Assembly: GCF_001581925.1 (NCBI RefSeq)
Contig: NZ_LQZA01000004.1
Coordinates: 49,764-81,763 of the forward strand
Length of the DNA stretch: 32,000 nt
Direction of reading: 5' to 3'
Source of the DNA: Ferrovum sp. PN-J185
Lineage (GTDB): Bacteria > Pseudomonadota > Gammaproteobacteria > Burkholderiales > Ferrovaceae
The notes under the pieces are model-generated. The model made no database searches, was not told the DNA's origin, and was given only the letters and a program-made list of their open reading frames with translations. Shown here piece after piece: positions 9,934 through 32,000 of this stretch. A program made the translations under genes and the position numbers. Positions within the stretch are counted from its first letter, which is position 1. The number at the start of each line of letters is the position of its first letter.

Positions 9934-10140
9934 ATGAAACCCGAAATTCACCCAGAATATCAAGACGTAACTGTTACTTGTAGTTGCGGCAACTCATTTG
10001 TTACCAAATCAACACTTGGTAAACCAAACCTCTCTGTTGAGGTTTGCTCAGCTTGCCATCCTTTTTACACCGGTAAACAAAAAATTGTGGATACTGCAGG
10101 TCGTGTTGAGAAATTCCGCCAAAAATACGCTCGTAAGTAA
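9934..10140 (+). CDS. rpmE: 50S ribosomal protein L31 (zinc-binding type A)
   Basis: 68 aa starting MKPEIHPEY, with C16xC18...C37xxC40 and FYTGKQ. Confidence 0.95.
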
Positions 10141-10160
10141 TCATTTTATACAGCATAAAA

Positions 10161-10180
10161 AGGCAGCGATCGCGCTGCCT
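10161..10180 (+). terminator. Hairpin after rpmE
   Basis: aggcagcg-atcg-cgctgcct forms a perfect 8-bp GC-rich stem. The T-tail is only short. Confidence 0.55.
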
Positions 10181-10200
10181 TTAGTCTAACTGGAGATCAC

Positions 10201-11859
10201 GTGCTATCACTTCTCTCCAACAAAAAGTCCCTAAGTTTTGACGGAAAATTTACCCCAGGTAAAACCATACTCTTTGTATTAATCTGTTTTGCATGGCTTA
10301 TTCCCGGTCTCACAGGTCACTCTCCCTGGAAATATGACGAAGCCGTCAGCCAAGGTATTGTTTACCACTTAAATCATGGTGGACATTGGTTGTATCCAAC
10401 TTTGGGTGGAGAGCCTTATTTCAATACCCCCCCTTTTTATTTTTGGGTCGCAGCTCTAATACAACGAGCCTTTGAAGGCTGGATTAATCCTGCAGATGCA
10501 GCAAGGCTCGCAAGCGGTCTATTCATGGCTCTCACTTTTATTATTACAGCATTAGGTGGATACACTTTATTTGGTGTTAGGGCAATGCGTGCGAGCGTCA
10601 TTTTGCTTATGGGCTGCGTGGGATTGTTGCTACGCGCCCATGAGATGAGTTCACATCTGTCTTGGATTACGGGTACTACCATGGTATTGGTAGCTATTCC
10701 TTGGTCGAGGAATCAATCTGTATGGGCTGGTTTATTAGCAGGAACTGGGCTTGGTATAGCGTTTTTATCTATTGGTCCAATAGCTATTGGGCTATTGTTA
10801 CCACTGATGATTTTTAGTCCGATAGTTATTAGACCCGTAAAACCCAAAAACCCACTTTTTTATTTATTTGCTATTGCAGTTACTCTGGCACCTTTCTTGG
10901 TTATTTGGCCCTACGCGCTTCATTTACATCATCCACATGAGTTTCAGCAATGGTGGATTAGACTTGTAGAACCATTTTTGCATCCTGAAAAATGGTTTAT
11001 TCTTACAACAAGTCCACTGTATTATCTTGGTGTAAGTATTTGGTTCGCCTTTCCTGCAGCCCCTCTTGCTTTAGGAGTAGTTTGGTATGGGGGGAAAGCC
11101 TTAAGATCAAGACCATCTATACGCTTTATTATGTTAACCATATTGTGGTTTTACTTTGTGCTGGGCTTTTGTACACAACCTAATGAATTTTATACACTAG
11201 TACTTTTAGTTCCTCTCTCATTATTGGCTGGCGGAAATATTGATTTATTAAAAAGAGGAACAGCTCACGCGCTTGATTGGTTTGGGATGATTACTTTCGG
11301 TTTAATCACCCTTGTTCTTTGGCTTGGTTGGATTGCGCAACTTTTGAATTTTCCAGAAAGTATTGTAAATGTGTTAGATGACAAATTACCCGGTTATAGA
11401 GCACAGTTTCATGTTCTGCCCTTTCTCTTTGCTTTATTTATCAGCTTATTATGGATAGTAACCATTATGCGCTCTCATCAAAATGCCAGACGAGCGTTGA
11501 TAAATTGGTCTGTCGGATTAACTGTCACATGGTTATTATTAATGACTCTCTGGTTACCTTACATAGAACGTGCTAGAGGATACACTTCTGTAATGGCATC
11601 CTTATCAACTCATTTAGTTAATAATCAAGATTGTGTAGCAAGCCTTGGTTTAGGAGAACCACAACGTGGTTTACTCGAGTACTACCTTAACCTACATACT
11701 GAGCGCGAAGAAATTAATCGTGGGAAAAATTGCCACTTAATTCTCATTCAAGATAATCCTCGTCACCGTATTTATCCCTCTATAAAAGGCACACTACTAT
11801 GGAGTGGATCTCGTCCTGGTGACCACAGCGAGCGCTTATATCTTTACTCTAAATCATAA
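10201..11859 (+). CDS. Polytopic membrane glycosyltransferase, family 39 (ArnT/PMT-like)
   Basis: 552 aa with a GTG start and many hydrophobic segments. The N-terminal loop (PWKYDEA...GGHWLYPTLGGEPYFNTPPFYFW) resembles the ArnT/PMT signature DE..Y......G.W..P...G.PY..KPP..YW. Confidence 0.6.
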   Translation: MLSLLSNKKSLSFDGKFTPGKTILFVLICFAWLIPGLTGHSPWKYDEAVSQGIVYHLNHGGHWLYPTLGGEPYFNTPPFYFWVAALIQRAFEGWINPADAARLASGLFMALTFIITALGGYTLFGVRAMRASVILLMGCVGLLLRAHEMSSHLSWITGTTMVLVAIPWSRNQSVWAGLLAGTGLGIAFLSIGPIAIGLLLPLMIFSPIVIRPVKPKNPLFYLFAIAVTLAPFLVIWPYALHLHHPHEFQQWWIRLVEPFLHPEKWFILTTSPLYYLGVSIWFAFPAAPLALGVVWYGGKALRSRPSIRFIMLTILWFYFVLGFCTQPNEFYTLVLLVPLSLLAGGNIDLLKRGTAHALDWFGMITFGLITLVLWLGWIAQLLNFPESIVNVLDDKLPGYRAQFHVLPFLFALFISLLWIVTIMRSHQNARRALINWSVGLTVTWLLLMTLWLPYIERARGYTSVMASLSTHLVNNQDCVASLGLGEPQRGLLEYYLNLHTEREEINRGKNCHLILIQDNPRHRIYPSIKGTLLWSGSRPGDHSERLYLYSKS

Positions 11860-16939: not shown

Positions 16940-17105
16940 TAAATCCATTCATCAACCAAAGAGATAAATAGTGTCCTGTAATATTTAGTTAAGGTCGTGC
17001 TGTTAGCGGATGTTCCTAGTGACTATAAGTAGTGATACTCTACTTAGACAAAAGAATATTGATCCGTATTTGCGAAAGGCTTGGAGAGCTAATGAACTAT
17101 TCATC

Positions 17106-17949: not shown

Positions 17950-18330
17950 TTACTTATATAACTTATACAAGGTGTCTTCAAAACTCTTAACAAGCAAGGG
18001 AGCTACTTTATTTTCCTGGAACCACTCAAGCATTGTCATTCTCGCCATCATCTGAGCCATACCAAGCTTAGGTAAGTATTGCGGATCCTTGAAAAAATTC
18101 AAAGCTATGGACAGAGCCAAATCATGTGTTGAATAGGGGATAGGGCCACTCTCAAGTTTGGTGCCGATAATTGAGATTTCCTTCTCTGACACCTCTCCCA
18201 TTAATAACTCTCCAGCAAGATCAATAGCGGCAGATAAATTCGCTCTTTTTGCTGGTGGCGGGTCTCCATAAATGGCTTTAATGAACTGATCCATTGCGGA
18301 TTCTTGTTTCTTGCTCCCAAATCCAAACAT
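17950..18330 (-). CDS. Hypothetical protein, 126 aa
   Basis: A long ORF, last gene of a three-gene minus-strand cluster. I recognise no motif. Confidence 0.5.
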   Translation of the reverse strand: MFGFGSKKQESAMDQFIKAIYGDPPPAKRANLSAAIDLAGELLMGEVSEKEISIIGTKLESGPIPYSTHDLALSIALNFFKDPQYLPKLGMAQMMARMTMLEWFQENKVAPLLVKSFEDTLYKLYK

Positions 18331-18464
18331 AATTAATCCTTAGTTACTTGTTAAATAGTCGCTCATAAAGCTTATTACATTAATAATTAATTTGAAAGAA
18401 GTTTGTATTAATAGCCCCTATTTAAGGCGCCTTATGTCTAATTAACAGAATTAGAGGGCACACT

Positions 18465-19331
18465 TTACTTTTTCCGGCGAAATGCTGCCAGCATTCCATT
18501 AGCCAACTCGGGGCGCTTCCTACATATTTCCTTGATTATCCTTCGCCTTCTTTTTTGCATAGCCTTTTTATAAAAAATATCAACGCTATTAGTTGCACGT
18601 TTCAAATCTGAACAAAACTTATCCGAAATCTGCTCCAACATCCTATGATCATTTTTTTGTTCAAGTACCTGTTCCGCAAGTACAAAATATCTTCCATCAC
18701 GCTCCAAACAAATAAATTGCATAAATGAGGCAGATTTAGGCGTATTTAAATATTTCTTACCCATCTTAAAACTAGCAAGAGGGAGCTCGGTGCGAGCTAT
18801 TAGATACTTCCGAGCTAGCTCAAGCCTTTTCTCTCTTGTTCTCTTGACTTCAACAGCTTCATCTGGGATCAAGAGATTACAAGCAGACTCCGAGCGTATA
18901 CGCTCTACCCCACCCGCCTGGTCGACATACTCAGGAAATTTAGAGCTATCAATCTTATTCAGGCGAGCGGTCTCAATTGCACGTGAATAGACGTGGGCAG
19001 TTTTACGATCCGCTTGGGTTATATAACGTATGAGAACTGTAGTATCTGAAGTATTTTCCTGTGTACGGATACCGTACTTTTCAGATAAAACCTTTCTTAA
19101 GATGGCAACCTGGTCTTCCCTATCAATACTCCTATCCAACCGTTCAGCTAAGGCATAAATTTTTCCAAGTAGCTCATACAAGGCTTTTCGACCTGAAATG
19201 ATATATCTATCATTAAATTCTTCATGTTCACGTGCTAATTCATCAGCCTGGCCAATTAAAGTCTTAGCAATAACTAGACTAGCTTTCTTGAATGCATTTA
19301 TTTCTTGCACTTCATTAATCAAATTCATCAC
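18465..19331 (-). CDS. Hypothetical protein, 288 aa, with a very basic C-terminus
   Basis: A long ORF starting 33 nt downstream of the GNAT gene stop. The tail KKAMQKRRRRIIKEICRKRPELANGMLAAFRRKK suggests nucleic-acid binding. I recognise no family. Confidence 0.55.
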   Translation of the reverse strand: MMNLINEVQEINAFKKASLVIAKTLIGQADELAREHEEFNDRYIISGRKALYELLGKIYALAERLDRSIDREDQVAILRKVLSEKYGIRTQENTSDTTVLIRYITQADRKTAHVYSRAIETARLNKIDSSKFPEYVDQAGGVERIRSESACNLLIPDEAVEVKRTREKRLELARKYLIARTELPLASFKMGKKYLNTPKSASFMQFICLERDGRYFVLAEQVLEQKNDHRMLEQISDKFCSDLKRATNSVDIFYKKAMQKRRRRIIKEICRKRPELANGMLAAFRRKK

Positions 19332-19363
19332 TATTCCCTTTCATTATTCTAGTGATATGTGGT

Positions 19364-20008
19364 TCAAGAAAAAAGCATACTGGACCGGTTTATCTCGGAT
19401 ACTTTTTTACTAATAACTTCTTCAAAAGAATTTAAGTAGCATCTTGAAAGACCATTGCCACTTCGTACCTCATACGTAAATCCAAATTTGTTGAAATAAC
19501 GTTTCTTTTCCTTATATCGATCCTCCTCCAGGAAAATCGACTTAACCTGGTTATGCCTCAAAACATACTTCATCAGTTTCGATGCAACGCCGTGACTTCT
19601 ATATGGTGGCTTCACATATACTTCTGCAATACCCCAAATCTCACCGCTATAAAGCCCCTGGAAATAATCTGTGTGGTTAGTAATACGAATAAAACCCAAT
19701 TCCTTATTCCCAATTTTTGCAATAAACATACGAGATTCTTCTGGATCATAAGAATTAAGTTTTAATTTTCTAGCCTCGCCTGAATAGGCCTTTATAAAAT
19801 AACTTGACCATTTAATTTTCTCCGCTAATTTAGTTACTTCAATCACTTCTGGATCCAAAACCCCAATCTCTTTCGAGTAACCCAATTTTGATTCCGAGGG
19901 AGATTTCATTCTCAGATTCATAAACCCCTCATACCACTCCGCAGAGTGAGTAATAGAGGGCTTGCTGATTAAATTTTGACTTACGGTTTTCATCATTGAT
20001 TCCTTCAT
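19364..20008 (-). CDS. GNAT-family N-acetyltransferase with an N-terminal extension of about 90 aa
   Basis: The C-terminal half has GNAT motif A-like sequence: IAEVYVKPPYRSHGVASKLMKYVL ... RYFNKFGF. Confidence 0.65.
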   Translation of the reverse strand: MKESMMKTVSQNLISKPSITHSAEWYEGFMNLRMKSPSESKLGYSKEIGVLDPEVIEVTKLAEKIKWSSYFIKAYSGEARKLKLNSYDPEESRMFIAKIGNKELGFIRITNHTDYFQGLYSGEIWGIAEVYVKPPYRSHGVASKLMKYVLRHNQVKSIFLEEDRYKEKKRYFNKFGFTYEVRSGNGLSRCYLNSFEEVISKKVSEINRSSMLFS

Positions 20009-20103
20009 TAATCACGGGAAGACCCCGTATTGAAAGAATCTCATTTATTACTGTTTGTAAAAATTACCATATATATAAATCACTATTCTGGTAATATTTA
20101 AAT

Positions 20104-20973
20104 ATGGCAAATCGACAAAAATTACCTCGTTTTAAGGATCAAGGCAGTAGTTGGGAGAGCGCCGGCTTATACGCAGCTATTGATTGGCGCTATGACGCCT
20201 TGGTTGATTACTTAAAACTTAGTCCCAGCTACAAGCTGGTGTCTGAATGGACTAAAAGGGGGCAAAAAACCCTGCCCACCAATTCGCCTCGGGATTGGAG
20301 CAAGCTCACTAAGACTTATGAGGATTTTGGGGATGTTTGGCGCATACCGGAGAGTCGTTGGTGGGATAGTCGCGGACGAGAACTCTTTGGCATTAAAGCA
20401 GCAAAGACACAAAGCTTTACCGTGGGCAAATCTGACGATAAGAATCTTATGAGTGGCAATATTATTTCTAACTCACAAAAGCTCTGGGAGGATATGGCTC
20501 AGCCAGAATGTCTCATCGTTGCTATTCCCACTAATCAAACCAAACAGATGGTACTAAGGCAAATTAATGCAATCATAAGAAGTAATACTTTTATTACGTC
20601 AAAACCCAAGCTTGTAAAACCGAAATACGAGCTGGTACGATCAAAACTGCGTGAACCCACCATTAAGCTAGGCACCATTGCATTAAAGATGTATCAAGTA
20701 GGCAAACCACTTTGGGCCATAGGAAATGAGCTAGGTTTATCGCCAGCTCATGCAATTCAAATTGATAAAAATGGTAAACCTATTTCTAATGAGCTTAATT
20801 TGCCAGAAAAAAAGATGCGCTTACAAGTACTCGCTAGCAAATTAATTGCAAAAGCAGAACTTATTGCTGAAAATGCTGCTCGCGGACGCTTTCCCACAGA
20901 TGCCCCTTGTACATTTGCTATCAAGTTTGAATCAAAGACCCGTAAAGTAGGCAGACCCAGCAAAGTTAAATGA
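20104..20973 (+). CDS. Hypothetical protein, 289 aa, with a possible HTH and an AT-hook-like tail
   Basis: It is a long ORF with an HTH-like segment (KPLWAIGNELGLSPAHAIQ) and a C-terminus RKVGRPSKVK. It is convergent with the recombinase gene, overlapping it by 8 nt. Confidence 0.5.
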   Translation: MANRQKLPRFKDQGSSWESAGLYAAIDWRYDALVDYLKLSPSYKLVSEWTKRGQKTLPTNSPRDWSKLTKTYEDFGDVWRIPESRWWDSRGRELFGIKAAKTQSFTVGKSDDKNLMSGNIISNSQKLWEDMAQPECLIVAIPTNQTKQMVLRQINAIIRSNTFITSKPKLVKPKYELVRSKLREPTIKLGTIALKMYQVGKPLWAIGNELGLSPAHAIQIDKNGKPISNELNLPEKKMRLQVLASKLIAKAELIAENAARGRFPTDAPCTFAIKFESKTRKVGRPSKVK

Positions 20974-21604
20974 GTTCTACTGCCATGCGCTTCATATCGT
21001 CATTCACATCAATGTAAGCCTGCGTAGTACTGATATTGCGATGACCCGCTAGACTCATGAGCACCCTAACTCCGATGCCTTTACTTGCAAGGTTAGTAAT
21101 AAAGCTTCTACGCCCGCTGTGACTAGTAGCACCAGATATACCAGAAGCTTTGTAGATACTTTTAAAGTGTTGCGTCAGCGTATTGGCTGTAAAGCCTCGC
21201 TTTGGGTGCTTTTGCGTGGGGAAGAAGGCATGGTTGCGGTCTTTATTGGTGATCTCATTGGCAAACGCTTGTAGCTCTGCTTTTAAGCGCTCATTGAGAA
21301 AGACTGTCCTTGGGTGGCGTCCCTTGGTTTGCTCCGGCAATAAGCGGATCTCACTTTTCACCTGGTTTTCAGGGTCTAAAACATCGCATATACGTAGGGC
21401 TGCTACTTCCCCTACTCTGAGCCCACCCCAATGGGTTAATAGCAACATAGCACGGTTACGTACGCTGTGTTTGGTGGTTTTTACATATGTCAAAACTTGG
21501 GTTAGCTCTGTACTACTAAACGATTTTGCTTGTGGCATATAGCTGTCCTTTAATTGTAATAAATACGCAGCTACAGTATGTTTTCTGATGTTTGGTTTGG
21601 ACAA
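20966..21604 (-). CDS. Short tyrosine recombinase (phage-integrase catalytic fold, FimB/FimE-like size)
   Basis: 212 aa with a TTG start. The catalytic residues are in the canonical order: GLRVGEVAAL (Arg), HSGRRSF (H-x-x-R), AGHRNISTTQAYIDV (His, Tyr). It lacks the long N-terminal arm-binding domain of typical island integrases. Confidence 0.8.
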   Translation of the reverse strand: MSKPNIRKHTVAAYLLQLKDSYMPQAKSFSSTELTQVLTYVKTTKHSVRNRAMLLLTHWGGLRVGEVAALRICDVLDPENQVKSEIRLLPEQTKGRHPRTVFLNERLKAELQAFANEITNKDRNHAFFPTQKHPKRGFTANTLTQHFKSIYKASGISGATSHSGRRSFITNLASKGIGVRVLMSLAGHRNISTTQAYIDVNDDMKRMAVELI

Positions 21605-21607
21605 CCG

Positions 21608-21760
21608 ACTATGGCTTAAATGCCACAGAAAAAAGGGCTTTCGATTTCAATGACTTACAAGATAACTACACTTTTGCATGAAAAAGTGTAGTTTTTTATT
21701 TAGCTACTTTTTACTGGAAAACTATGGCGCAAATGACAAAAGATATGGCTCAAATGCCAT
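21608..21760. repeat. Three direct copies of an approximately 18-20 bp partially palindromic site next to the recombinase start
   Basis: The copies are ACTATGGCTTAAATGCCACA (21608-21627), ACTATGGCGCAAATGACAA (21721-21739) and ATATGGCTCAAATGCCAT (21743-21760). The third is ATGGC-N6-GCCAT. Confidence 0.55.
21665..21698 (+). terminator. Strong plus-strand rho-independent terminator in the recombinase upstream region
   Basis: A 12-bp perfect stem, actacacttttt (21665-21676) with aaaaagtgtagt (21682-21693), has a 5-nt loop. The run t93-t98 gives T6 (t93 closes the stem), then a and more T. The T-run exists only on the plus strand. Confidence 0.65.
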
Positions 21761-21770
21761 GATCTTTGCG

Positions 21771-22445
21771 TTAGCGGAACAAAGCTTCTGAATCCTTACT
21801 AATCTGCCAGTCACCCTGGGAATCTCGCTCTACAAGATATATTTCCTGAGAATCGAAATTTGAGCACTGAAATTCACAATCGCAAGTAAGGCCGTTATAA
21901 GAAATTGATTGGACATCTTTCTCGAGATCATCAGCCAAGCCCAACTGCCAAGTGGCGCCTGAATAATCTGATGATGTATCTAGGTCTTTTAATTCCAGTC
22001 TAAGATTTTTGATGTCTATAGGAGCATCCGTTTCAAAGCCAGCATTTAAAGTTGCTAGGCTATATCTATCAACGACCACTAATGCATATTGATCTGAAGC
22101 TATTTCACCATCCAGCTCATTTATAGTCTCATCGCTGTAAAACAAGATGTTTCCCATTGAGTCTTCAAGAGAGGCATCTTCATCATCCACATTTCTAACT
22201 TCGGCCATCTCAAAAGTTTTGCCATCAATTTCGATAGAAATTTCACGAGGACCATCAAATACATCTATGCCCCAACAGATTAATTCACCATCAATTCCTT
22301 TTAGATTGAGAATCTCATGGTATTTTTTGGGAGTATTAGATTTTGAATTGGCCTTCAAGGCCTGCAAAGTGGTCTTATCAATGCAATAAAGATTGATCTG
22401 CACTCCAGGACCTGAGATCTTCATCTCTAAGTTATGTTTAGACAT
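21771..22445 (-). CDS. Strongly acidic hypothetical protein, 224 aa
   Basis: A long ORF. By my count it has 45 Asp+Glu against 19 Lys+Arg. I see no TM segment and recognise no motif. Confidence 0.55.
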   Translation of the reverse strand: MSKHNLEMKISGPGVQINLYCIDKTTLQALKANSKSNTPKKYHEILNLKGIDGELICWGIDVFDGPREISIEIDGKTFEMAEVRNVDDEDASLEDSMGNILFYSDETINELDGEIASDQYALVVVDRYSLATLNAGFETDAPIDIKNLRLELKDLDTSSDYSGATWQLGLADDLEKDVQSISYNGLTCDCEFQCSNFDSQEIYLVERDSQGDWQISKDSEALFR

Positions 22446-22485
22446 AATTCACATTTTCAATTGAGTTAAGCCATTCTACATAATA

Positions 22486-22751
22486 AGGCGAATGGCTTCG
22501 CCTGTGATTTCGCTTATCGCTCATCACATTTTTCATATCTTTGATGATTTTCGCTAGATTCAACCTACACTGAGCCTTAAGCAACAGGCTCAGTAATAGG
22601 AAAGGACTTTCGCTGAGTTCTTTGCTACACCACTTATGGGCACAACCAATTTGGGAAGGGCGGTTTCGCTGTCTCCTTTTATGTGCGGCTTGAAACGCAA
22701 TATATACAAAAGCAATAAGTGGCTACCTTTGCACTAAATCGCAAGTTCGCT
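22486..22751. promoter_or_regulatory. Iteron-like array of TTTCGCT motifs plus a TTCGCC palindrome in a divergent intergenic region
   Basis: TTTCGCT occurs exactly at 22508, 22549, 22608 and 22664, and GTTCGCT at 22745. The palindrome AGGCGAA-tggc-TTCGCCT lies at 22486-22503. All are in the same orientation, with spacings of 41, 59, 56 and 81 bp. Confidence 0.5.
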
Positions 22752-23138
22752 GTGTAAGCTTCTTGCTCGTGATCCATAAAACTAGGTTTTATGATCTTTG
22801 TGCTAATTTATATACTTGATTCATATTAGTCAGCAAGGCTAATGGCGTCCTGTAAAGGATAGTGAATTAAGTCTCTGCTACCGCCCAGAATTTCCGTCTC
22901 CGTGATCAACAATGTCCAGTTTTCGGGTGACATAACGACTAGGTGTCACAGCCCTTGTTTCGGTAGTAATAAGTAATGGCATACAAAACGTTCTTTTGTT
23001 TTGTCGTCATAGTTATTTAGCAAACCACACAAATTCCTGCTTAATTCTGGATTCTTTTGGTTGCCTATTTTCAGGTTGCTCAACCCCTATTTCTGATCAT
23101 ATTGTTATATGTGCCCATTCACTATTAAGGAGCCATAC

Positions 23139-23576
23139 ATGAGCACACTAGAAACACTGAAATTCGTCAGCGTTACTAAACCCACTAAATTACCCGCTGT
23201 TGTCCAGAGACGTAATAAGCTATCCGATAAGCTGTGGGAACAGATCCAATTAGCTGAAGCTAAAAGCGCTGGCACAAGCTATGCCCCATTAAAAACCAAA
23301 CGATTAAAAGATATTGAAGGCAATATCAAAATCTTAGAAGTGCCAAAACGTATCAAGCCTTGGTGGTTTACTGCCCAAAATGGCAAGTCCTGCCTTGTTG
23401 TCAGGTACGGATCCAAAACGCTAGAAATATCACAAGGTAAATCGACTATTGAGCTAGATAAGCCCGATGAGCTTATACATATATTAGAGATGATTAAAAC
23501 GGCTGTAGAAGCTGGCGAGCTAGATGCACAAATAGAGCGGGCAGCTGGACTGCTTAAAGAAGGGTTTGCCAAATGA
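23139..23576 (+). CDS. Hypothetical protein, 145 aa
   Basis: An AAGGAG Shine-Dalgarno sits 7 nt before the ATG at 23139, so I prefer that start to the track start at 23109. I recognise no family. Confidence 0.55.
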   Translation: MSTLETLKFVSVTKPTKLPAVVQRRNKLSDKLWEQIQLAEAKSAGTSYAPLKTKRLKDIEGNIKILEVPKRIKPWWFTAQNGKSCLVVRYGSKTLEISQGKSTIELDKPDELIHILEMIKTAVEAGELDAQIERAAGLLKEGFAK

Positions 23577-23745: not shown

Positions 23746-23928
23746 ATGCGCTTCTATGAATTTGGCATTAAATCCATTAAACCCTTATCAGCCCTAACTC
23801 CTGAAAAAGCACGCCTTGCCCACCTCAAGCAATCGAGCGAACGAGCCAAAAAACTTTATAAGGCTGAACGAGAGCGGCAAAATCTTATTAAATCCCAGCG
23901 TAAGATTTTTAATCTTTCGAGACCTTGA
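23746..23928 (+). CDS. Small basic hypothetical protein, 60 aa
   Basis: An ORF on the same strand, 24 nt after the 49-aa ORF. It is Lys/Arg-rich (KQSSERAKKLYKAERERQNLIKSQRK). Confidence 0.4.
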   Translation: MRFYEFGIKSIKPLSALTPEKARLAHLKQSSERAKKLYKAERERQNLIKSQRKIFNLSRP

Positions 23929-24084
23929 TTCATTTCGAGTGAAATCAGGCTGGTTTTTGGCGGTTCTAATTGCAAAATAGCACTGAGCTGCTATGGGGTT
24001 GAACAAGTATGCGAGACTGGTTTCAGATGACTCTGCCACCGTTACTTAAAGTAACGCCTAAATGCCACGATTTCAGGATAGGTG

Positions 24085-24501
24085 CTACCAACTAATTCCA
24101 TCATCCTGAAATGGCTCAGGAATTATTAAATCCGCCATTACTGTCCCTGCAGTTATAGCTTTGGGTACATGCAAATCATTTAAATCATAAAATGCATTTA
24201 GTAACCTAAAGCAATCAATAACCGAATGACGAGTTGATATAGACTCAATTTCTAGATTACTTATATTTGAGGTGCCTGAATATATTTCAGAGTGAATGCC
24301 ATATATCCACTTGTCTACGAGTGCAGCATTGCTGCCTGCCAGCATTGCAAGTGTCCTGATAGAAAAAAAATTGCTAGCACCCTTTAAAATTTCTGCAGCA
24401 AGATAGTCATTACCCTCAAGTAAAGCTTCTTCACTGGCTTTAGCTGCCCATGCAAGTACTTTTTGATCGTCCCTTTTATCCCAATTCCAACTTCTACTCA
24501 T
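24085..24501 (-). CDS. Hypothetical protein, 138 aa, translationally coupled to the 3' end of zorD
   Basis: Its ATG overlaps the zorD stop by 4 nt (24498-24501). It is the last gene of the operon. I recognise no motif. Confidence 0.6.
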   Translation of the reverse strand: MSRSWNWDKRDDQKVLAWAAKASEEALLEGNDYLAAEILKGASNFFSIRTLAMLAGSNAALVDKWIYGIHSEIYSGTSNISNLEIESISTRHSVIDCFRLLNAFYDLNDLHVPKAITAGTVMADLIIPEPFQDDGISW

Positions 24502-27500
24502 ACATTGGCCGAAAATTTAGATGTGTTCATATAAAACTTAAAAATTTCCTCATCTAAAGCAAGCTGCTTAAGCTTTACTTTGTTCAACAATTCAATCAAC
24601 TCAGCCCTTCCAATCAGCTTTACCCCTAAAGTATTAGCTTGTTGAATAGCTGTAGAGTTGAATTTTTGATTGGTGATTGCAACCTTTTGAAACATTACGC
24701 CCGGATGTCGTGCTTGATAAGCCGGACTACCAGCAGCAACCTCTTTAACCGCATCCCAACCCAGCTCATCTTGCATACTATATTTGCACTGACAAATCAT
24801 TCCTTTGCCATCATTACCAATAACAACGATATCGATGCCACCGTCGCCTCTTTGCTTCTGGGTAATGTAGGCTTTATTTGGATAAGCGCCAAATAAAAGC
24901 TGACAAAATACTTCAAACGTAGCTCCATCCAAAGTATCCACACGGCTTATATCAACTAACTTATCCGCGTCAACTTGAATACCGCCAGGTCCACTATCAG
25001 GCATCAATGTTCCGGTTGGGATATCAGAGCCCACTCCATCTAACATATCTCCAGCAAGATCCATCTTTAAAGTCATCAATCGATCTAACTTGGCGTCAAA
25101 GGTCACAAAGTCTTCAGCTGTAATAGTTGGGCAATAAACATATACATCCTTGGTCTGCCCAATGCGATATGCCCTATCTGTTGCTTGACCCTCTTTAGCC
25201 GGATTCCACGTTCTCGTGAAATGAATAACATGATTAGCTGAAACTATGTTTACTCCAAAGCCAACGGCTAATGGCGAGAGAATGATTACGCCAAAACCTT
25301 CGCGTGATTGGAACGCATCAATTAAATCCTGTCGATCATCAATATCTCCATTAATAATCTGCGCGGAAAAATCAAAGCGCTTACGAATAAACATAACCAA
25401 TGATCTTTGAATTTCCTTAATATCTGTGAATATGATTACTTTTTCTTGCTTTTGCGCGATTAATTCCAGGGTACTCAATAGCCACTTTAGTTTTGGGGCA
25501 TTGTTTAAATGGGCGTCTATTCCGTTTACATCAATAGTAAACGTTGTCTTTGGCAGACAATATGGCTCAGAACACAAGGCTCTTACAAAATGTAAAACTG
25601 CAAAAGAAACATTCGACCTTCTTTTTGCATCCTTTTCTTGGGCTGCTGCAGCGATTTGTCGTAATCCCTGCGCATATAAATTTCTCTGATGATTTGAAAT
25701 AGGCACAGATAACCTTTTTCTAAGGGCTCCATCAAACTCATATTCATCATTTGAAACCAGTATCTTCTGAGGCAACTCATCAGCAATATCGCTCTTCATC
25801 CTTCTTAATATCTGAGGGCTAACTATTGCACGCAGATGTTCAATTACTTCTGCTGCCTTTTCATCACCAGCTTCCTTCGCTTCAATGGGCTTTCTATATG
25901 TTCTACCAAATTCGTCTAATGCCCCGAGCAAACCGGGCTGTATAAAGTCAAACAAGCACCACAAATCTGCCAAACTATTTTCTACAGGCGTTCCTGTACA
26001 TGCAATTCTAAATTTAGCTTTCTGCTTCTTAGCTGCTGTTGTAGATTGCGCATTAGGTGTTTTAATTTTTTGAGCTTCATCACAAATCATGAAGGTAAAT
26101 TCTTGTCTGGCTAAACTAAATTCATAATCTCGAACAGTTTCATATGTGGTCAAAACTACCTTAGCAGAACCCAACCAATTTGGTGTTAATAAATTAACGA
26201 TTTTTTTATCTAATAATGACTGGTCAATAAATTGCTTAGGCTGTCTTCTAGCGCTCAATCCTTCAGCATGGAGCAATAAAATCTCTGGAAAATTATTAAA
26301 AAAGTTCCTAGCTTCATTCTTCCAGTTTTGCATTAATACCGGGGGAGCAACAATTAATGATGGTGGCGCCTCAGGATTGCGTTCATAAAACCAAGAAAGC
26401 AATGATAGAAGTTGTAATGTCTTCCCAAGACCCATGTCGTCAGCCAACAATGCACCTCGACAATATTCTGGAGCCTTTGAATACAAGTACTGCATCCAAG
26501 CTAATCCATCTAACTGATGTTTTTTTAACTTAATTTCACTCTTCAGATCAGTAGGCAATTGAGGCGAAAAGCCTTCGGGCACCTTAAGTATTGCCGCACG
26601 CATTTCCTCTGCCGCAGTTTCGCTATAGTCAAGCTGTGTAATATTGACTTTCACCAAGAGTGTTTCTTTGCGCCCCTTTCCGGGCGGGTTTGGACTTGGC
26701 GGAGTTGGGCCAGGTGGTGTCGGCCCTGGAGGAGTTGGGCCAGGTGGTGTCGGCCCTGGAGGAGTTGGGCCAGGTGGTGTCGGCCCTGGAGGAGTTGGCC
26801 CCGGAGGAGTTGGGTCAGGTGGCAGAGGGTCACCCCCTGAACCAATAATTCCAAGTAAAACCTTTAGATCTTTTACCAAATCAATAGCTTCAGGTATTGA
26901 AAGAGGAATTGGTAATCGGGGATCGGCAACTTTGTCGACACCTGCTGCCTTTGCCTGCTCAATCTTGGCCTCAAATTCCGTTACCCATATTTCATCAACA
27001 GCTATAAAAACAGGCGCTGAGCCTGGAGTTAATGAAACACCGAGAAGCGGTGGCGCCCAAGAGGAGTCATCTCCACCCTCTTTTTTTATGTAAGCTGAGT
27101 AGATGGGTTTTGCAACTCCAATACCATCAATTCGCCCACCATAATTATCGAGAGCATAAATGTCGTTAAAGTCTATGAAATTTTTTACCTGATCTTTCCA
27201 AACATTGAACCAAGCCTTAGCACTATCCAATGTCTGATAAAGATCACCATCAACATCAATTACAAAATTACGCCAAGTAAAAAATTGACGCTCTTCCGAG
27301 AGAGCCGATTCAATTTCTTGTATTAACAAGTTAAGCTCATGGGCAGTTGAAATAATTGATCTATCGGCCTTCGCCATTCCATCTTCAAGATTTTGATAAA
27401 CGCTTGCTGTTACGCTTTCAATGGCACCCTTTGAAATATCTGGAAATAGTGATATTCGAGTAGAAAAGATTCCAGCCTCTTCTTTGGCTTCTTGTATCTG

Positions 27501-28493
27501 ATTCTCATCCAATACTTTGGAGGCAGCCTCACCAAGATAAGCGAAAGGATTTCTAAGAAAGGCTTCAGCCTTACTACCAGCAACTTTGCGCCCATCAAAT
27601 TGTGTTTTGATAACCGTTAGAACATCTCGTATCGCCTCAGGAAAAATGACCCTTGTTCTGCCTGTAGCCGTTGGAAAATCACTGTGTTCAGGAATGAATT
27701 TGAATGAATCAAATTGCCCCATCCAATCATCAGGTGCCCCATCAAAATATGGTTCAATTGTGACAACACTGGTTCCCAGAGCTTGCGCTCTGATGTAACG
27801 CATCTTTAGCAAGCTTGGAACTAAAACAATGGTTGCAGCCAAATAAGGTGAAAGCTCTGCCTTTGCTAACAAGGCGAATTTGCGAGCCTCACCCCACAAT
27901 ATTTCATTTTCAGATTGAGAGCGTGACTGGGCTTCAAATCCATGATTGCGACTAATAAAGTCTATTAATTGCCAAGAATCCTTTGATTGAAGTGAGTAAG
28001 TAGACCCATCAACAAAAGCACCTCCAAGCCACTTTCTAACTCTAATGCTACGGCCTGAAACCTCTCGCCAACCATCAATTCTTAACCTAAAGAACTTATC
28101 TGCAACTGTTCCATCTTCCCCAAGAATTGGGATTGAATGATCAATCTTTGGAAGCGACAGCAGATATAGAGAATCTTCATGTTCAGCATCTTCGAATAAA
28201 GCGTAAAGATCAGACCAAGGAATAGCTATCTCGGAATTATTGAATGCTGCCACGCCATCGGACACTAGCTGAGCAAGGTAAATTAACTGCTGACTACCAG
28301 AAACAGGATCGGTTGCAATATCCATTAACTGACTCGAGGCACTTAACCCGATATTAACGTCAATAAGGTAAGAGATCCTATCGTTAGAAAATGCAGGTTG
28401 AATTAACTTTTGGGAAGATGGATTATTACCCATTTCCTCGAAAACATTTTTAACTTCGGGACGTGATTTAAAAAGCCTGCTAAGAAAATTCAT
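24498..28493 (-). CDS. zorD: ZorD-like SNF2-family helicase fused to a C-terminal Mrr-type PD-(D/E)xK nuclease, 1331 aa
   Basis: SNF2 motifs are present: LADDMGLGKT (res 683-692), DEAQ (res 805-808, DNA 26070-26081), ACTGTPVEN and QATDRAYRIGQ. The C-terminal nuclease-like block is GDGGIDIVV...ICQCKY (res about 1216-1238). It sits after zorC with a TGATG stop-start overlap. Confidence 0.85.
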   Translation of the reverse strand: MNFLSRLFKSRPEVKNVFEEMGNNPSSQKLIQPAFSNDRISYLIDVNIGLSASSQLMDIATDPVSGSQQLIYLAQLVSDGVAAFNNSEIAIPWSDLYALFEDAEHEDSLYLLSLPKIDHSIPILGEDGTVADKFFRLRIDGWREVSGRSIRVRKWLGGAFVDGSTYSLQSKDSWQLIDFISRNHGFEAQSRSQSENEILWGEARKFALLAKAELSPYLAATIVLVPSLLKMRYIRAQALGTSVVTIEPYFDGAPDDWMGQFDSFKFIPEHSDFPTATGRTRVIFPEAIRDVLTVIKTQFDGRKVAGSKAEAFLRNPFAYLGEAASKVLDENQIQEAKEEAGIFSTRISLFPDISKGAIESVTASVYQNLEDGMAKADRSIISTAHELNLLIQEIESALSEERQFFTWRNFVIDVDGDLYQTLDSAKAWFNVWKDQVKNFIDFNDIYALDNYGGRIDGIGVAKPIYSAYIKKEGGDDSSWAPPLLGVSLTPGSAPVFIAVDEIWVTEFEAKIEQAKAAGVDKVADPRLPIPLSIPEAIDLVKDLKVLLGIIGSGGDPLPPDPTPPGPTPPGPTPPGPTPPGPTPPGPTPPGPTPPGPTPPSPNPPGKGRKETLLVKVNITQLDYSETAAEEMRAAILKVPEGFSPQLPTDLKSEIKLKKHQLDGLAWMQYLYSKAPEYCRGALLADDMGLGKTLQLLSLLSWFYERNPEAPPSLIVAPPVLMQNWKNEARNFFNNFPEILLLHAEGLSARRQPKQFIDQSLLDKKIVNLLTPNWLGSAKVVLTTYETVRDYEFSLARQEFTFMICDEAQKIKTPNAQSTTAAKKQKAKFRIACTGTPVENSLADLWCLFDFIQPGLLGALDEFGRTYRKPIEAKEAGDEKAAEVIEHLRAIVSPQILRRMKSDIADELPQKILVSNDEYEFDGALRKRLSVPISNHQRNLYAQGLRQIAAAAQEKDAKRRSNVSFAVLHFVRALCSEPYCLPKTTFTIDVNGIDAHLNNAPKLKWLLSTLELIAQKQEKVIIFTDIKEIQRSLVMFIRKRFDFSAQIINGDIDDRQDLIDAFQSREGFGVIILSPLAVGFGVNIVSANHVIHFTRTWNPAKEGQATDRAYRIGQTKDVYVYCPTITAEDFVTFDAKLDRLMTLKMDLAGDMLDGVGSDIPTGTLMPDSGPGGIQVDADKLVDISRVDTLDGATFEVFCQLLFGAYPNKAYITQKQRGDGGIDIVVIGNDGKGMICQCKYSMQDELGWDAVKEVAAGSPAYQARHPGVMFQKVAITNQKFNSTAIQQANTLGVKLIGRAELIELLNKVKLKQLALDEEIFKFYMNTSKFSANV
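26676..26831. repeat. GC-rich in-frame tandem repeat encoding the (PTPPG)n linker of ZorD
   Basis: There are three perfect 30-bp units, ggagttgggccaggtggtgtcggccctgga, at 26701-26730, 26731-26760 and 26761-26790. Degenerate copies lie on both sides. The protein reads DPTPPG(PTPPG)x7 PTPPSPNPPG, residues about 555-606. Confidence 0.9.
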
Positions 28494-29974
28494 CAGAAAT
28501 ATTTGTCAATTGAAAATGTGGTTGTTCCTGAACCCACTTTACCAGCTCGGACATCATCAAAGATGCCAAATGCAGGCAATTGATAGGTTCTAGCTTTATA
28601 TTGCCATCCCTCTCTATGAACTATGTCAGGACCTTTGGCGCTACCAGTGTAATAACGCTCTTTTAAGCCTCTTTGGCTAGTTGAGGCATCAAGACTAACG
28701 GCATTTACATTAAATGTGTTTTCCCCTTTTTGATAGATGTAGCATCCACCATGGGGATTAAATTCAACAATTAAATGTCCGCTAATTTCCATAATGAATG
28801 CATCTAGCGAAGACTCGCCTTTCGCCCCCATTAGATTGGCATATGACTCGACATCATTTTTAAAGTGCTCTTTTAACTCTGGATGTGCCGTCAAATATCT
28901 GCGCATATCCTCGCCCAATACAAGTCGAGTAAAGGTTATTTGATTTATATATTGCATCCAAAAATCAACTCTTCCATGTAGATCTGGAACACCACGGCGC
29001 TTAAGTAACTCAAAGAACAGCCTTAGATTGGCCTCTTGTACCCAAGTTAAAACCATTCGCCAAGTTGGCTCTGACACGTGAATCCATTTGGAAGCTCCTG
29101 TATTTCGTAGCTTGGGACTCTTCCATGTTTCTAGGGCAAATTCTTTGAGCTCCCTGTGAACCCGTATATCTGAGGAAGCCCGATATCTATCCAATAAGGC
29201 ACGCAGTCCATTATCTAAATAGGATGGATGCCTTTTAAGTAGGGCAATAATAAGTGGGATAGATTCTTTAAACTTAGCATCTGATTGAGATAACGAAGCC
29301 TTTAAGCATGACTTAAAAAATTCCTCCCAAAACCAACTTGTATCCGGAATATGCAACTCCTGCTTAATTTGCTTAACCCGAACCTCACTTCCGGCAAGCC
29401 ACTCAGCGCCATAAACCTCGCATGGTGACTCACCAAGCAAATGCTGATTTGCCTCAATACTTTTCATCCAATTAGTTGAGAAAGCTGCATTCTTTTTTAC
29501 ATCTGGCCAAGTTTTAACTAGGAAGCTCCTTATAGCTCGCTGGGAGCTAAAGAAACTATCCCCTTGGTAATTCAGCTTTTGCGCCTGAAAATAAGATTGA
29601 AAAACGCCGAACCAAAATATTCCATCAATCTCATCACTTTCAAACTCTTTTGCATAACGATCCAAAAGAGACCTTAGCTTTTCAGAAGCTGAGGCAACAG
29701 ATATGCCGCCTAATTCAGAAATGGGTTTTGTTAAAACAAATGAGATGATTTCATACTCGCCAACATCACCATTTAACGAGCCATCAAGAAAGTTACGTGC
29801 TGCAGCATAAGCAACTTCATCTTTTGGTTTCAAGATGAAAGTAAATTCATCAGTTATTTTTTTATGGATTTTAGAAAGCTTGGGATAACTCTCCCCACGA
29901 TCACTCTTCAATTCATATTGAAAAGTACTATTTAAATCAGCAAGTGAATTTTTTAATAGGTCTGTGAAGGACAT
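28493..29974 (-). CDS. zorC: ZorC-like protein (candidate EH-signature family), 493 aa
   Basis: The call rests on position (between MotB-like zorB and SNF2 zorD), overlapping junctions with both neighbours, and a size close to known ZorC. I cannot confirm the EH-signature domain itself by eye. Confidence 0.6.
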   Translation of the reverse strand: MSFTDLLKNSLADLNSTFQYELKSDRGESYPKLSKIHKKITDEFTFILKPKDEVAYAAARNFLDGSLNGDVGEYEIISFVLTKPISELGGISVASASEKLRSLLDRYAKEFESDEIDGIFWFGVFQSYFQAQKLNYQGDSFFSSQRAIRSFLVKTWPDVKKNAAFSTNWMKSIEANQHLLGESPCEVYGAEWLAGSEVRVKQIKQELHIPDTSWFWEEFFKSCLKASLSQSDAKFKESIPLIIALLKRHPSYLDNGLRALLDRYRASSDIRVHRELKEFALETWKSPKLRNTGASKWIHVSEPTWRMVLTWVQEANLRLFFELLKRRGVPDLHGRVDFWMQYINQITFTRLVLGEDMRRYLTAHPELKEHFKNDVESYANLMGAKGESSLDAFIMEISGHLIVEFNPHGGCYIYQKGENTFNVNAVSLDASTSQRGLKERYYTGSAKGPDIVHREGWQYKARTYQLPAFGIFDDVRAGKVGSGTTTFSIDKYF

Positions 29975-30702
29975 ACGCCAAAATCTTTTCCAGATAAATC
30001 AATCGTAGATTCCTCTTGCCTCTTTTTATCGTCACCCAACTGCCAGAATTCAAGCTTTAACTCAGCCCGCCGACTTTCTTCATCGCTTCTTTTCTGCGAG
30101 TTAAATGAAAAGCCGCCGACAAGAAAAAGGCTTTTAACTTGATTTTTATCATCTAGCGATAATCCGCCAGTTCCATCAGGATCGGTTTTGGCGAGTTCGC
30201 AAATAACCTCTTTACTGCGCTTTAACGACAGGTCTAAGTTAGTCATATAGTTACCAGTTTTACTGGTATACCCCTCAACTATCACCCTTCTGAAAAACTG
30301 CTTACATTCATTATTCTTAACTGTTTTAAGTACTGTTGGGATATAGTCCCTTAAGAACTTTGAGGCTTCTGAACTAATTCCGTGCTTGCCATCATCAAAT
30401 TTAACGATTGACCCCAAATCAATCCGTATTGCATCTCCCTTGCTATATTCAATACGAGCCTGACCAGGAAAGCGTTGGTTTGCAATTCCTTGAAGATCTT
30501 TTGCGCAAGCTGAAATCGTTGCCTCTCTGGCTGCTTCGGCAGCATATTGATTTTCATACTTCTTTTTCAACATCACAATTGTTACCGCCATAACTACTAG
30601 AAAAAGTGTCATGCATGCAGTCATTAGATCTGAATAGGAAATCCAAAAGGGCTTCTCACCTTCATCCTTGTACGACTTCTTGGAAGATCTTTGGTTAAAC
30701 AT
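29953..30702 (-). CDS. zorB: ZorB: MotB-like stator subunit with an OmpA-like peptidoglycan-binding domain
   Basis: It has a single N-terminal TM segment preceded by the MotB-type motif FWISYSDLMTACMTLFLVV (conserved Asp at residue 25). The C-terminal OmpA-like block is VEGYTSKTGNYMTNLDLSLKRSKEV. A 1-nt stop-start overlap links it to zorA. Confidence 0.8.
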   Translation of the reverse strand: MFNQRSSKKSYKDEGEKPFWISYSDLMTACMTLFLVVMAVTIVMLKKKYENQYAAEAAREATISACAKDLQGIANQRFPGQARIEYSKGDAIRIDLGSIVKFDDGKHGISSEASKFLRDYIPTVLKTVKNNECKQFFRRVIVEGYTSKTGNYMTNLDLSLKRSKEVICELAKTDPDGTGGLSLDDKNQVKSLFLVGGFSFNSQKRSDEESRRAELKLEFWQLGDDKKRQEESTIDLSGKDFGVCPSQTY

Positions 30703-32000
30703 TATTCAGACTTTTTAAGCTTGGCGACTGACATCAGCATTGACTGAACTGCACCCTCTAAGGCGCTTAAGGAGCCCGTTAACAAAGTATCAGACGACAC
30801 TTTGAGCGCCTCGACCTGGGCTACCATTTCCTGCCCAAACTGCTGGAATGATCCCTTGAGTACCGAATTAACTTGATTTAAATAGTCAGTACTTTGCTTT
30901 TCAGCAGTTTGCAATGAACCTAAAATTCTCTCCAGATCTGAAAGCATTTGCGTGCTTAATCCAGCTTCTTTTTTTGCGTTTTCCACAAGAGCTTGAAGCT
31001 GGAGCACGTAACCCTGAACAGATTCCCGAGACTCATCATATTTCTCGAATGCAGTTCTTACCGATGCAGAAGCCATTTGAAGCGTAGAGGCTGTTTGCTC
31101 TAATTGATCAGTTACCACACGACTCTTATCAAATACACCTCCGATACTATCGCCAGCCTTAGTGAATCGATCTGCTGCATCACGCATCACAAGAGCTCCG
31201 TCATTCATTCCGGATATTGCAACGGTGGCAGCATTTTGAATGGCTTTAATATTTTCCTCGGTCTTAAAAGCAGCATCCTTCACATCGCCCATTAACTGAA
31301 CAACGTTATCAGTTAAGCCGCTATAGAGACCTTCTGTTTCTGCCACTAAGCGCTCTGCCCGGGCCTTATCTGCTACAGCCTGATTCTCTCTTTCTGCAGA
31401 AATTACGGAGATTGATTTCTCAAGCTCAGATAAGATTTTTTGCATAGTCTCATCCATTGCCTGCTTCGTTTGATTTTGCTGCTCAAGGATTAACTTACGC
31501 AACTCCTCAACAAAACTGCGCAACTGTTGGTTCATCTGCTCTTGTGCAAGAGCAGCCTTAGACATTGACTCCTCCATCTTCGCAGACATTTCAGATGTGG
31601 CTTTTTGACCAGCGCCTGAGATATCCGTAATCAAACGAGTCATTGCCTCTTGAACCATAGTCATAGAGTCAGATGACTTCTGAATTGCTGTATTGATATT
31701 CTGAATTTGAGATCCAAAGGTCTCATCAATTTTTGCCATAAATGCGCTCAGTAAATTCTCCAGCATGCCTGTTACAGCACCACCCTGCTCACCCGATGCT
31801 CTAGCAACGACCTCCATCAGATCCTTCATCGGAGCATCTAGACTCTCTTTAATAGCACCCGATACCTGTGATGAGAAGTTTTGTGCTGACTGAAGCTGAG
31901 CATTGATTTGTTTATCTGCTACCTCATGCATTAACTGCTTTAAATCATCAATTAATGCATCCTTAAGGCTTGCTGTATTGGCTGAGCTTTTCTCAGAGGC
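30702..32000 (-). CDS. zorA: ZorA, C-terminal coiled-coil tail only; the N-terminal MotA-like part lies outside the window
   Basis: The reading frame stays open past the track ATG at 31931 up to the window edge (...ASEKSSANTASLKDALIDDLKQL-MHEV...). The visible 432 codons are Q/E/A/S-rich and heptad-like, resembling an MCP signalling domain, with no TM segment. It lies directly upstream of zorB. Confidence 0.7.
   Translation of the reverse strand, partial: ASEKSSANTASLKDALIDDLKQLMHEVADKQINAQLQSAQNFSSQVSGAIKESLDAPMKDLMEVVARASGEQGGAVTGMLENLLSAFMAKIDETFGSQIQNINTAIQKSSDSMTMVQEAMTRLITDISGAGQKATSEMSAKMEESMSKAALAQEQMNQQLRSFVEELRKLILEQQNQTKQAMDETMQKILSELEKSISVISAERENQAVADKARAERLVAETEGLYSGLTDNVVQLMGDVKDAAFKTEENIKAIQNAATVAISGMNDGALVMRDAADRFTKAGDSIGGVFDKSRVVTDQLEQTASTLQMASASVRTAFEKYDESRESVQGYVLQLQALVENAKKEAGLSTQMLSDLERILGSLQTAEKQSTDYLNQVNSVLKGSFQQFGQEMVAQVEALKVSSDTLLTGSLSALEGAVQSMLMSVAKLKKSE

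Follow-up and report, generated by a model that had tools for sequence, protein, structure and literature searches.

A recombining small gene behind zorD as a candidate modulatory subunit in one subclade of type I Zorya operons

What does a fifth gene contribute to a defense operon that is described as having four? The gene in question is ORF5, a 138-amino-acid (aa) open reading frame (ORF) immediately downstream of zorD in a 32,000-nucleotide (nt) stretch of DNA from Ferrovum sp. PN-J185 (contig NZ_LQZA01000004.1, positions 49,764 to 81,763). We refer to this whole stretch as the window. A preliminary description of the window had put ORF5 forward as a candidate fifth component of the Zorya system. 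Type I Zorya is said to have been set out by Doron in 2018 as ZorABCD. We tentatively propose that ORF5 is a clade-specific, swappable modulatory subunit (an adaptor or a guard) that would control the timing or the target of ZorD nuclease release, and we do not favor a role as a housekeeping part of the motor. The proposal draws on the position of ORF5 homologs, which follow zorD wherever their context is usable, and on the divergence and exchange of ORF5 alleles between operons.

A fifth cistron overlapping zorD

The operon consists of five cistrons on the minus strand with no intergenic gaps between them, the successive overlaps or abutments from zorA to ORF5 being 1, 22, 1, and 4 nt:

30702..32000, minus strand: zorA, C-terminal 432 codons, cut by the end of the window
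29953..30702, minus strand: zorB, 249 aa (PADLOC ZorB1, 287 bits; Pfam MotB_plug, E = 3.7e-6), 22-nt overlap with zorC
28493..29974, minus strand: zorC, 493 aa (EH_Signature PF15611, E = 9.7e-37; PADLOC ZorC1, 337.9 bits), 1-nt overlap with zorD
24498..28493, minus strand: zorD, 1331 aa (PADLOC ZorD1, 1279.6 bits; Pfam SNF2-rel_dom, Helicase_C, and Mrr_cat)
24085..24501, minus strand: ORF5, 138 aa, ATG start, acidic (isoelectric point, pI, of 4.7)
24498..24501, minus strand: ATGA junction of the zorD stop and the ORF5 start, a putative translational-coupling site

All sequence criteria tested for ZorA, ZorB, ZorC, and ZorD agree in classifying the operon as type I Zorya. The truncated zorA has no in-frame stop up to position 32000; the 409-aa ORF counted from its first in-window ATG matches the PADLOC model ZorA1 (PDLC00598, 385.8 bits) from profile position 255, and the part of ZorA within the window is 97% identical to residues 221-652 of a Polynucleobacter ZorA. 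For ZorB, the OmpA-like domain gave a Pfam match under its cutoff. The window shares with type I Zorya the ZorA/ZorB motor pair, the EH-signature ZorC, the SNF2 helicase-nuclease ZorD, and the gene order, and differs from the described systems in the extra fifth cistron with its stop/start overlap, which is absent from the PADLOC models. The Zorya literature that we searched (PMC11946911, Hu et al. 2024; PMC11890865, Mariano et al. 2025) describes four type I genes and makes no mention of a fifth.

On the minus strand, zorD ends in gcc aat gta TGA, with the stop codon TGA at 24500-24498 and the ORF5 start codon ATG at 24501-24499. The preliminary description was accurate in three respects that bear on the gene itself. 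The 4-nt overlap of the ORF5 start with the zorD stop can be read directly from the sequence; ORF5 is the last cistron before the convergent genes, the next credible one being a DUF6641 gene at 23109-23576 on the plus strand; and ORF5 has no recognizable motif, as searches of Pfam, PADLOC, NCBIfam, and PHROGs all returned no match.

In total, ORF5 has about 25 homologs. A search of 5.8 billion proteins recovered 16 (127-151 aa, 49-65% identity), none with a domain; the sole named one is a protein from Polynucleobacter sp. MWH-P3-07-1, annotated as hypothetical. When 1.84 billion cluster representatives were searched exhaustively with an HMMER profile, seven matched, each of them a short ORF5-like protein. 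The carriers are Ferrovum (the window), Polynucleobacter, a betaproteobacterial metagenome-assembled genome, and freshwater betaproteobacterial metagenomes, and a ZorD scan of genome contigs returned a single locus. As for the host of the window, the Rho protein clusters at 90% or more with Ferrovum spp., and a Legionella origin was rejected on this ground. Two possible origins of the gene were rejected: gene fission or fusion, because the exhaustive HMMER search revealed no ZorD with a fused ORF5-like domain, and duplication or splitting off of a Zorya domain, because hhalign comparisons with ZorA, ZorB, ZorC, and ZorD yielded probabilities below 1%.

Within this family, synteny is strict. 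On each of the 20 distinct contigs for which DNA was at hand (the window and loci L001-L016, L018, L027, and L028), the ORF5 homolog lies within a zorABCD operon, directly 3′ of the gene for an Mrr-bearing ZorD of 1,321-1,333 aa. The ATGA overlap is kept in all loci examined, and in two of them (L012 and L016) an extra TGA extends it to TGATGA. On three more contigs, without DNA, the ORF5 homolog overlaps a long upstream gene by the same 4 nt. The preliminary description had proposed such a gene-neighborhood analysis and held that homologs found mostly in non-Zorya contexts would speak against it; instead, all homologs with usable context sit behind zorD in zorABCD. The genes 3′ of ORF5 differ. 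Most loci have a convergent gene for a DEDDh exonuclease, others have either a NERD helicase gene with a DUF2779 gene or a 126-aa gene followed by one for an MmeI enzyme, and the window has an integrase module. Because these 3′ genes differ between loci, the association of ORF5 is with zorD and not with the neighborhood.

These data bear on whether ORF5 is an independent small module (for example, one for addiction or anti-anti-defense, or an unrelated gene) that uses zorD for expression only and stands outside the Zorya mechanism. In keeping with such a module, recombination is concentrated at the 3′ end of the operon, where the downstream genes vary and the flank in the window is rearranged; the family is very young and narrow, as reflected in its seven representatives among 1.84 billion; and the core system works without ORF5 in other clades. 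However, tblastn searches of plasmid and phage collections and a scan of IMG/VR viral contigs found no ORF5 homolog, nor did one occur in the other genomic contexts searched. The ATGA overlap, moreover, is retained in every locus despite 40-60% protein divergence, which would imply selection for coexpression with ZorD specifically. We consider an independent module distinctly unlikely.

The substitution pattern of ORF5 is that of a gene under constraint. The ratio of nonsynonymous to synonymous substitution rates (dN/dS) ranges from 0.1 to 0.5 in pairwise comparisons, with a median of about 0.2, and the alignment has 28 invariant columns, including W5, W7, and the SNFF, LLN, and IxP motifs. 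Neither a frameshift nor a premature stop was found in ORF5 among the 20 contigs, and no overlapping ORF on the opposite strand was found that could account for its conservation. As judged from these patterns, ORF5 is a genuine protein-coding gene under purifying selection. A decaying or spurious ORF without function, conserved as a by-product of neighboring sequence, would fit the lack of any known domain or fold match and the status of ORF5 as the most divergent part of the operon, but it is extremely improbable in view of the low dN/dS, the invariant residues, the intact reading frames, the lack of an opposite-strand ORF, and a confident prediction of a four-helix fold.

Divergence and exchange of ORF5 alleles

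ORF5 is the fastest-evolving and most divergent segment of the operon. Between loci, its amino acid identity is 38-95%, compared with 86-98% for the adjoining 260 residues of ZorD. The mean nt distance among eight taxa is 0.32 in ORF5 and 0.14-0.30 elsewhere in the operon, and dN is 0.31 in ORF5 versus 0.05-0.13 in zorB, zorC, and zorD (0.075 for the Mrr domain). The parts of zorD with which ORF5 is compared below are as follows, with an N-terminal domain ahead of them:

26679-26825, minus strand: PPGPT pentapeptide-repeat linker (zorD aa 557-605), which joins the ZorD N-terminal domain to the helicase
25560-26519, minus strand: SNF2 domain (Pfam)
25158-25481, minus strand: Helicase_C domain (Pfam)
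24585-24938, minus strand: Mrr_cat nuclease domain (Pfam)

ZorD contains the motifs GLGKT, DEAQ, and GDGGID...QCK, and the GDGGxD...QxK motif of Mrr_cat is invariant in a 37-row alignment (the C-terminal halves of 8 ZorDs of the clade and 29 ZorD homologs). The Mrr active-site residues are D1217, D1221, Q1235, and K1237. With its 1331 aa, PPGPT-repeat linker, and C-terminal Mrr_cat domain, the ZorD of the window differs from a plasmid-borne Klebsiella/E. coli ZorD (about 1082 aa, L023), which aligns to residues 72-1133 only and therefore lacks the Mrr region. The linker DNA contains a 15/30-nt tandem repeat (26697-26813) that varies in copy number and sequence between loci, and a 149-aa ORF opposite zorD at 26644-27093 is an artifact of the PPGPT repeat.

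Three patterns distinguish ORF5 from the DNA around it. First, dS of ORF5 and zorD is discordant in both directions: for the pair L016-L018, it is lower in zorD (0.31) than in ORF5 (2.06), and for the pair L005-L018, higher in zorD (1.75) than in ORF5 (0.27). Second, pairs of loci in which both flanks can be compared show a dip in nt identity in ORF5 only. Between L001 and L027, identity is 78-93% at the 3′ end of zorD, 47-67% in ORF5, and 76-93% in the downstream exonuclease gene, and between L007 and L016 it is 85-96% (mostly 90-96%) upstream, 70-74% in ORF5, and 80-96% downstream. Third, nt identity between the window and L027 is 96-100% from zorB to about position 25150, at the end of Helicase_C, except for one bin of 91% in the Pro-rich repeat linker; past that position, identity falls to 84-93% across the linker to Mrr and the Mrr region, and to 57-67% in ORF5 (41% at the amino acid level). 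The recombination breakpoint relative to L027 is clean and lies at about 25000-25150, where Helicase_C ends and the linker to Mrr starts.

The two-way dS discordance, the identity dips limited to ORF5, and the breakpoint between the window and L027 indicate more than faster drift, and we therefore conclude that ORF5 alleles move by recombination, either by themselves or along with the zorD end that encodes Mrr. At the level of sequence, the genealogy of ORF5 is uncoupled from that of zorD, and the Mrr nuclease module of ZorD has itself been exchanged between operons, as far as the identity profiles indicate. The allelic pattern also suggests diversifying selection on ORF5.

A scan for co-variation with ORF5 along the operon (eight taxa) has its peak in zorC at 29302-29003 (rho = 0.59, family-wise permutation P = 0.015). 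Yet, the zorC genes of the window and L027 are 97-100% identical at the nt level while their ORF5 alleles are 41% identical, and this contrast contradicts a strict co-adaptation of ZorC and ORF5. We regard the zorC peak as a weak lead only.

Possible roles of ORF5

An AlphaFold2 model of ORF5, based on a 17-sequence alignment, has a predicted local distance difference test score (pLDDT) of 79.6 and a predicted template modeling score (pTM) of 0.75. In the model, four predicted helices (aa 9-28, 32-48, 59-78, and 88-107) are followed by an extended tail. Conservation centers on the N-terminal SWxW...DD, on the helices (ASEEALL, EILxGASNFF, and LLNSFFDLN), and on DLIIPEP in the tail (aa 124-130). 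The variable segments are the loops at aa 49-58 and 79-87 and the tail stretch at aa 108-122, with an entropy of about 2 bits, and the loop at aa 79-87 carries a 10-13-aa insertion in one allele class. All 17 homologs are acidic (pI 4.4-5.4, net charge -5 to -14). Foldseek searches of the model against PDB and BFVD gave no match (the best PDB hit, with E = 0.99, was to designed helical repeats), and a PDB profile search found nothing significant among natural proteins.

The end of the tail, DLIIPEP(Y/F)xDDGI (aa 124-138, 24088-24130), is a conserved acidic and hydrophobic segment, and in one allele class DLIIPEP forms the extreme C terminus. C-terminal tails of single-stranded DNA-binding protein (SSB; DDDIPF) recruit nucleases and helicases. 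The ORF5 tail may be loosely compared with them, and a DEDDh exonuclease gene is the usual neighbor of ORF5.

How could such a protein act as a modulatory subunit? Ribosomes that finish ZorD would re-initiate at ORF5, so that both proteins would be made together at a ratio near 1:1. The conserved core and tail motif of ORF5 would dock on a conserved Zorya partner, the likeliest one being the C-terminal linker and Mrr module of ZorD (aa about 1115-1331), which would come off the ribosome right ahead of ORF5. The variable loops would face something that itself varies between lineages, most likely a phage-derived trigger or inhibitor. We also consider a more specific possibility, namely, that ORF5 serves as a guard or specificity module that can be exchanged, with a core that plugs into ZorD and hypervariable loops that recognize lineage-specific phage factors (triggers or anti-Zorya inhibitors). 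We deem it unlikely in this full form. If it is true, a swap of the cassette would retune which phages trigger Zorya, and ORF5 would be the first identified target-specificity determinant in any Zorya system. The operons of the window and L027, 96-100% identical from zorB to the helicase end and with ORF5 alleles 41% identical, constitute a natural experiment in this regard.

Several observations weigh against a modulatory subunit. No Nei-Gojobori comparison, pairwise or by segment, gave dN/dS above 1 in ORF5 (among close pairs, 0.46 for loops and 0.24 for helices), although the test is weak, with dS saturated in most pairs. Much of the ORF5 pattern could be explained by relaxed constraint and recombination. 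The distances of ORF5 do not correlate with those of the last 600 nt of zorD, which encode Mrr (Spearman rho 0.06-0.09), a result that is either neutral toward a tight interface between Mrr and ORF5 or mildly against it. Furthermore, none of seven type I Zorya loci with ZorD identity of 68% or less carries ORF5 (best E = 5 in a six-frame scan with a hidden Markov model), a count that has the 75-78% tier, including the 78%-identical ZorD of Polynucleobacter antarcticus, outside its range. The seven loci are as follows:

L024-L026, metagenomic, without ORF5: ZorD identity of 68%, 51%, and 48%
Plasmid loci without ORF5: ZorD identity of 44% (Nitrosospira), 38.5% (Polaromonas), 41% (Polymorphobacter), and 38% (Klebsiella)

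Behind zorD, these loci have either a gap or genes that are unrelated or convergent. Since seven related loci do without ORF5, the core mechanism does not require it, and since five of their seven ZorDs keep the Mrr domain, ORF5 is dispensable as a partner of that domain. The designation of ORF5 as a fifth Zorya component in the preliminary description stands within one ZorD subclade (20 of 20 contigs) and fails across type I (0 of 7 loci with ZorD identity of 68% or less). By its distribution, ORF5 is an add-on specific to one narrow ZorD subclade rather than a general fifth component.

Two of the Mrr-bearing loci outside the subclade have other ORFs behind zorD on the same strand: one of 217 aa in L026, 138 nt past zorD (9990-10643), and one of 154 aa in L020, 33 nt past zorD (8729-9193). 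Both lack a domain match and are unlike ORF5. The slot behind zorD may repeatedly host lineage-specific add-ons.

The same comparisons bear on the main alternative, in which ORF5 is a stoichiometric inhibitor of the ZorD Mrr nuclease (for self-immunity or autoinhibition), similar to colicin immunity proteins or DNA mimics, that is released when ZorAB signals infection. An inhibitor would be consistent with a small, uniformly acidic, and predicted helical protein, with a gene right behind the nuclease-coding end of zorD and overlapping its stop, and with a unit swapped between the window and L027 that holds both the Mrr region and ORF5. In addition, full-length ZorD of E. coli is autoinhibited (PMC11946911). 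On the other side, Mrr-bearing ZorDs at 38-68% identity occur without ORF5; Mrr is conserved (dN of 0.075) and ORF5 is not (0.31), with no co-variation of their distances; and ORF5 has neither a Pfam match to an immunity family nor a Foldseek match to Im proteins or known DNA mimics. In cognate nuclease-immunity pairs, co-variation is the norm. We view an inhibitor of this kind as possible but doubtful. Among the functions raised in the preliminary description (a regulator, a self-immunity or autoinhibition factor, and a specificity adaptor), self-immunity matched to the nuclease fits least, given that ORF5 does not track Mrr variation and that Mrr-bearing ZorDs exist without it, and we prefer a modulator or an adaptor.

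Comparison with known systems places the candidate modulatory subunit near several families and inside none. In function, its closest counterparts would be small adaptor or immunity proteins whose genes sit behind nuclease modules, and the recombining 3′ cassettes of polymorphic toxin loci or the specificity subunits of restriction systems. Colicin and pyocin DNase immunity proteins (Im7/Im9) and the toxin-CT/immunity cassettes of contact-dependent growth inhibition (CDI) and Rhs systems have traits with which ORF5 can be compared. As in these polymorphic toxin and immunity systems, ORF5 is small, acidic, and predicted to be helical, and it is encoded behind a nuclease end. Its core is conserved and other segments vary, and it sits in a recombining 3′ cassette behind conserved upstream DNA. 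It differs in that it has no sequence or fold match to them, its nuclease is conserved and does not co-vary with it, and the setting is a defense operon and not a secreted toxin; neither in sequence, nor in fold, nor in co-variation does ORF5 show the hallmarks of an immunity family. Target-recognition modules of the HsdS type are the variable specificity subunits of restriction systems. By analogy, ORF5 would resemble them as a fast-diversifying, recombination-shuffled module in a conserved defense operon, and it differs from them in having no homology to HsdS and no predicted DNA-binding fold, and in being acidic.

Within Zorya, ZorE (type II) and ZorF/ZorG (type III) are lineage-specific soluble components on a conserved ZorAB core (PMC11890865). 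ORF5 shares with them a modular pattern of evolution on the 3′ side of the operon. It is unlike them in that it is added to ZorC and ZorD and does not substitute for these, has no nuclease or other enzymatic motif, and has no PADLOC match to ZorE, ZorF, or ZorG. From all these comparisons, ORF5 is classified as belonging to no known family and as previously undescribed.

The 3′ flank of the operon

Does the operon end in a hairpin? The preliminary description had suggested so on account of the following feature at the ORF5 stop codon:

24070..24112, no strand assigned: 10-bp perfect inverted repeat with a 23-nt loop, which spans the ORF5 stop and is probably incidental

The arms of the repeat are exactly as described (ATTTCAGGAT at 24070-24079 and ATCCTGAAAT at 24103-24112), and they bracket the stop codon (24085-24087). 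An intrinsic terminator of the operon would be in line with a perfect 10-bp repeat at the end of the last cistron that belongs to the minimum-free-energy fold, where it is extended to about 19 pairs. It would also be in line with the enrichment of perfect inverted repeats of at least 10 bp across the window (11 observed versus 1.9 expected), given which the repeat may have a non-random origin. However, the stem is AT-rich (3 of 10 pairs are G/C), the loop is long, the sequence after the stem (CGUGGCAUUU) has no U-tract, and a terminator scan did not call the repeat. The fold z-score of the region is -1.5, with 16 of 200 shuffles folding equally well, and the repeat is the weakest of the 22 comparable repeats listed for the window. 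One arm encodes the conserved PFQD residues of ORF5. Homology to all other loci stops at the ORF5 stop codon, which places the distal arm in DNA specific to the window. In the DEDDh-exonuclease loci, which are the majority, that convergent gene starts 1-2 nt past the ORF5 stop or overlaps it, and there is no conserved hairpin. The reading of the repeat as the operon-end hairpin was thus not borne out, and a terminator at this site is very unlikely.

Past ORF5, at a distance of 45 nt, an 81-aa ORF with a GTG start (23794-24039, minus strand) has no Pfam match and matches other loci only marginally in tblastx; it is probably a non-coding product of the rearrangement. A decayed relic with in-frame stops, derived from the 3′ end of a gene for a DEDDh exonuclease (RNase_T and QSregVF_b), lies at 17006-17099 on the plus strand, about 7 kb from ORF5 and beside a chromosomal MBL-fold gene, and the gene itself is gone from the position abutting ORF5. 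The displaced relic indicates rearrangement at the 3′ end of the operon.

The integrase module in the window (17950-23576) comprises genes for proteins of 126 aa, 288 aa, 214 aa (GNAT-like), and 289 aa, a 212-aa tyrosine recombinase (20966-21604), a 224-aa protein, and DUF6641 (23109-23576). Its core (the DUF6641, integrase, and 289-aa genes) is found next to Zorya in the same order in Polynucleobacter L001, the DUF6641 and integrase genes recur in L027, and the integrase gene recurs in L015. The window contains no tRNA gene. These gene contents suggest that the Zorya operon is mobile as part of a small integrative island.

It is still largely an open question by what means infection is sensed by Zorya and what restrains and directs the ZorD nuclease, and the published models are built on a four-protein type I system. 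ORF5, which in its clade is always co-encoded with ZorD, exceeds the rest of the operon in variability, and recombines in near-identical operons, would provide a handle on the regulation or specificity of ZorD. The PADLOC and NCBIfam models miss this conserved component in the clade. Because its carriers form a small clade of environmental bacteria (betaproteobacteria from freshwater and acid mines), ORF5 may inform the evolvability of Zorya more than its universal mechanism.

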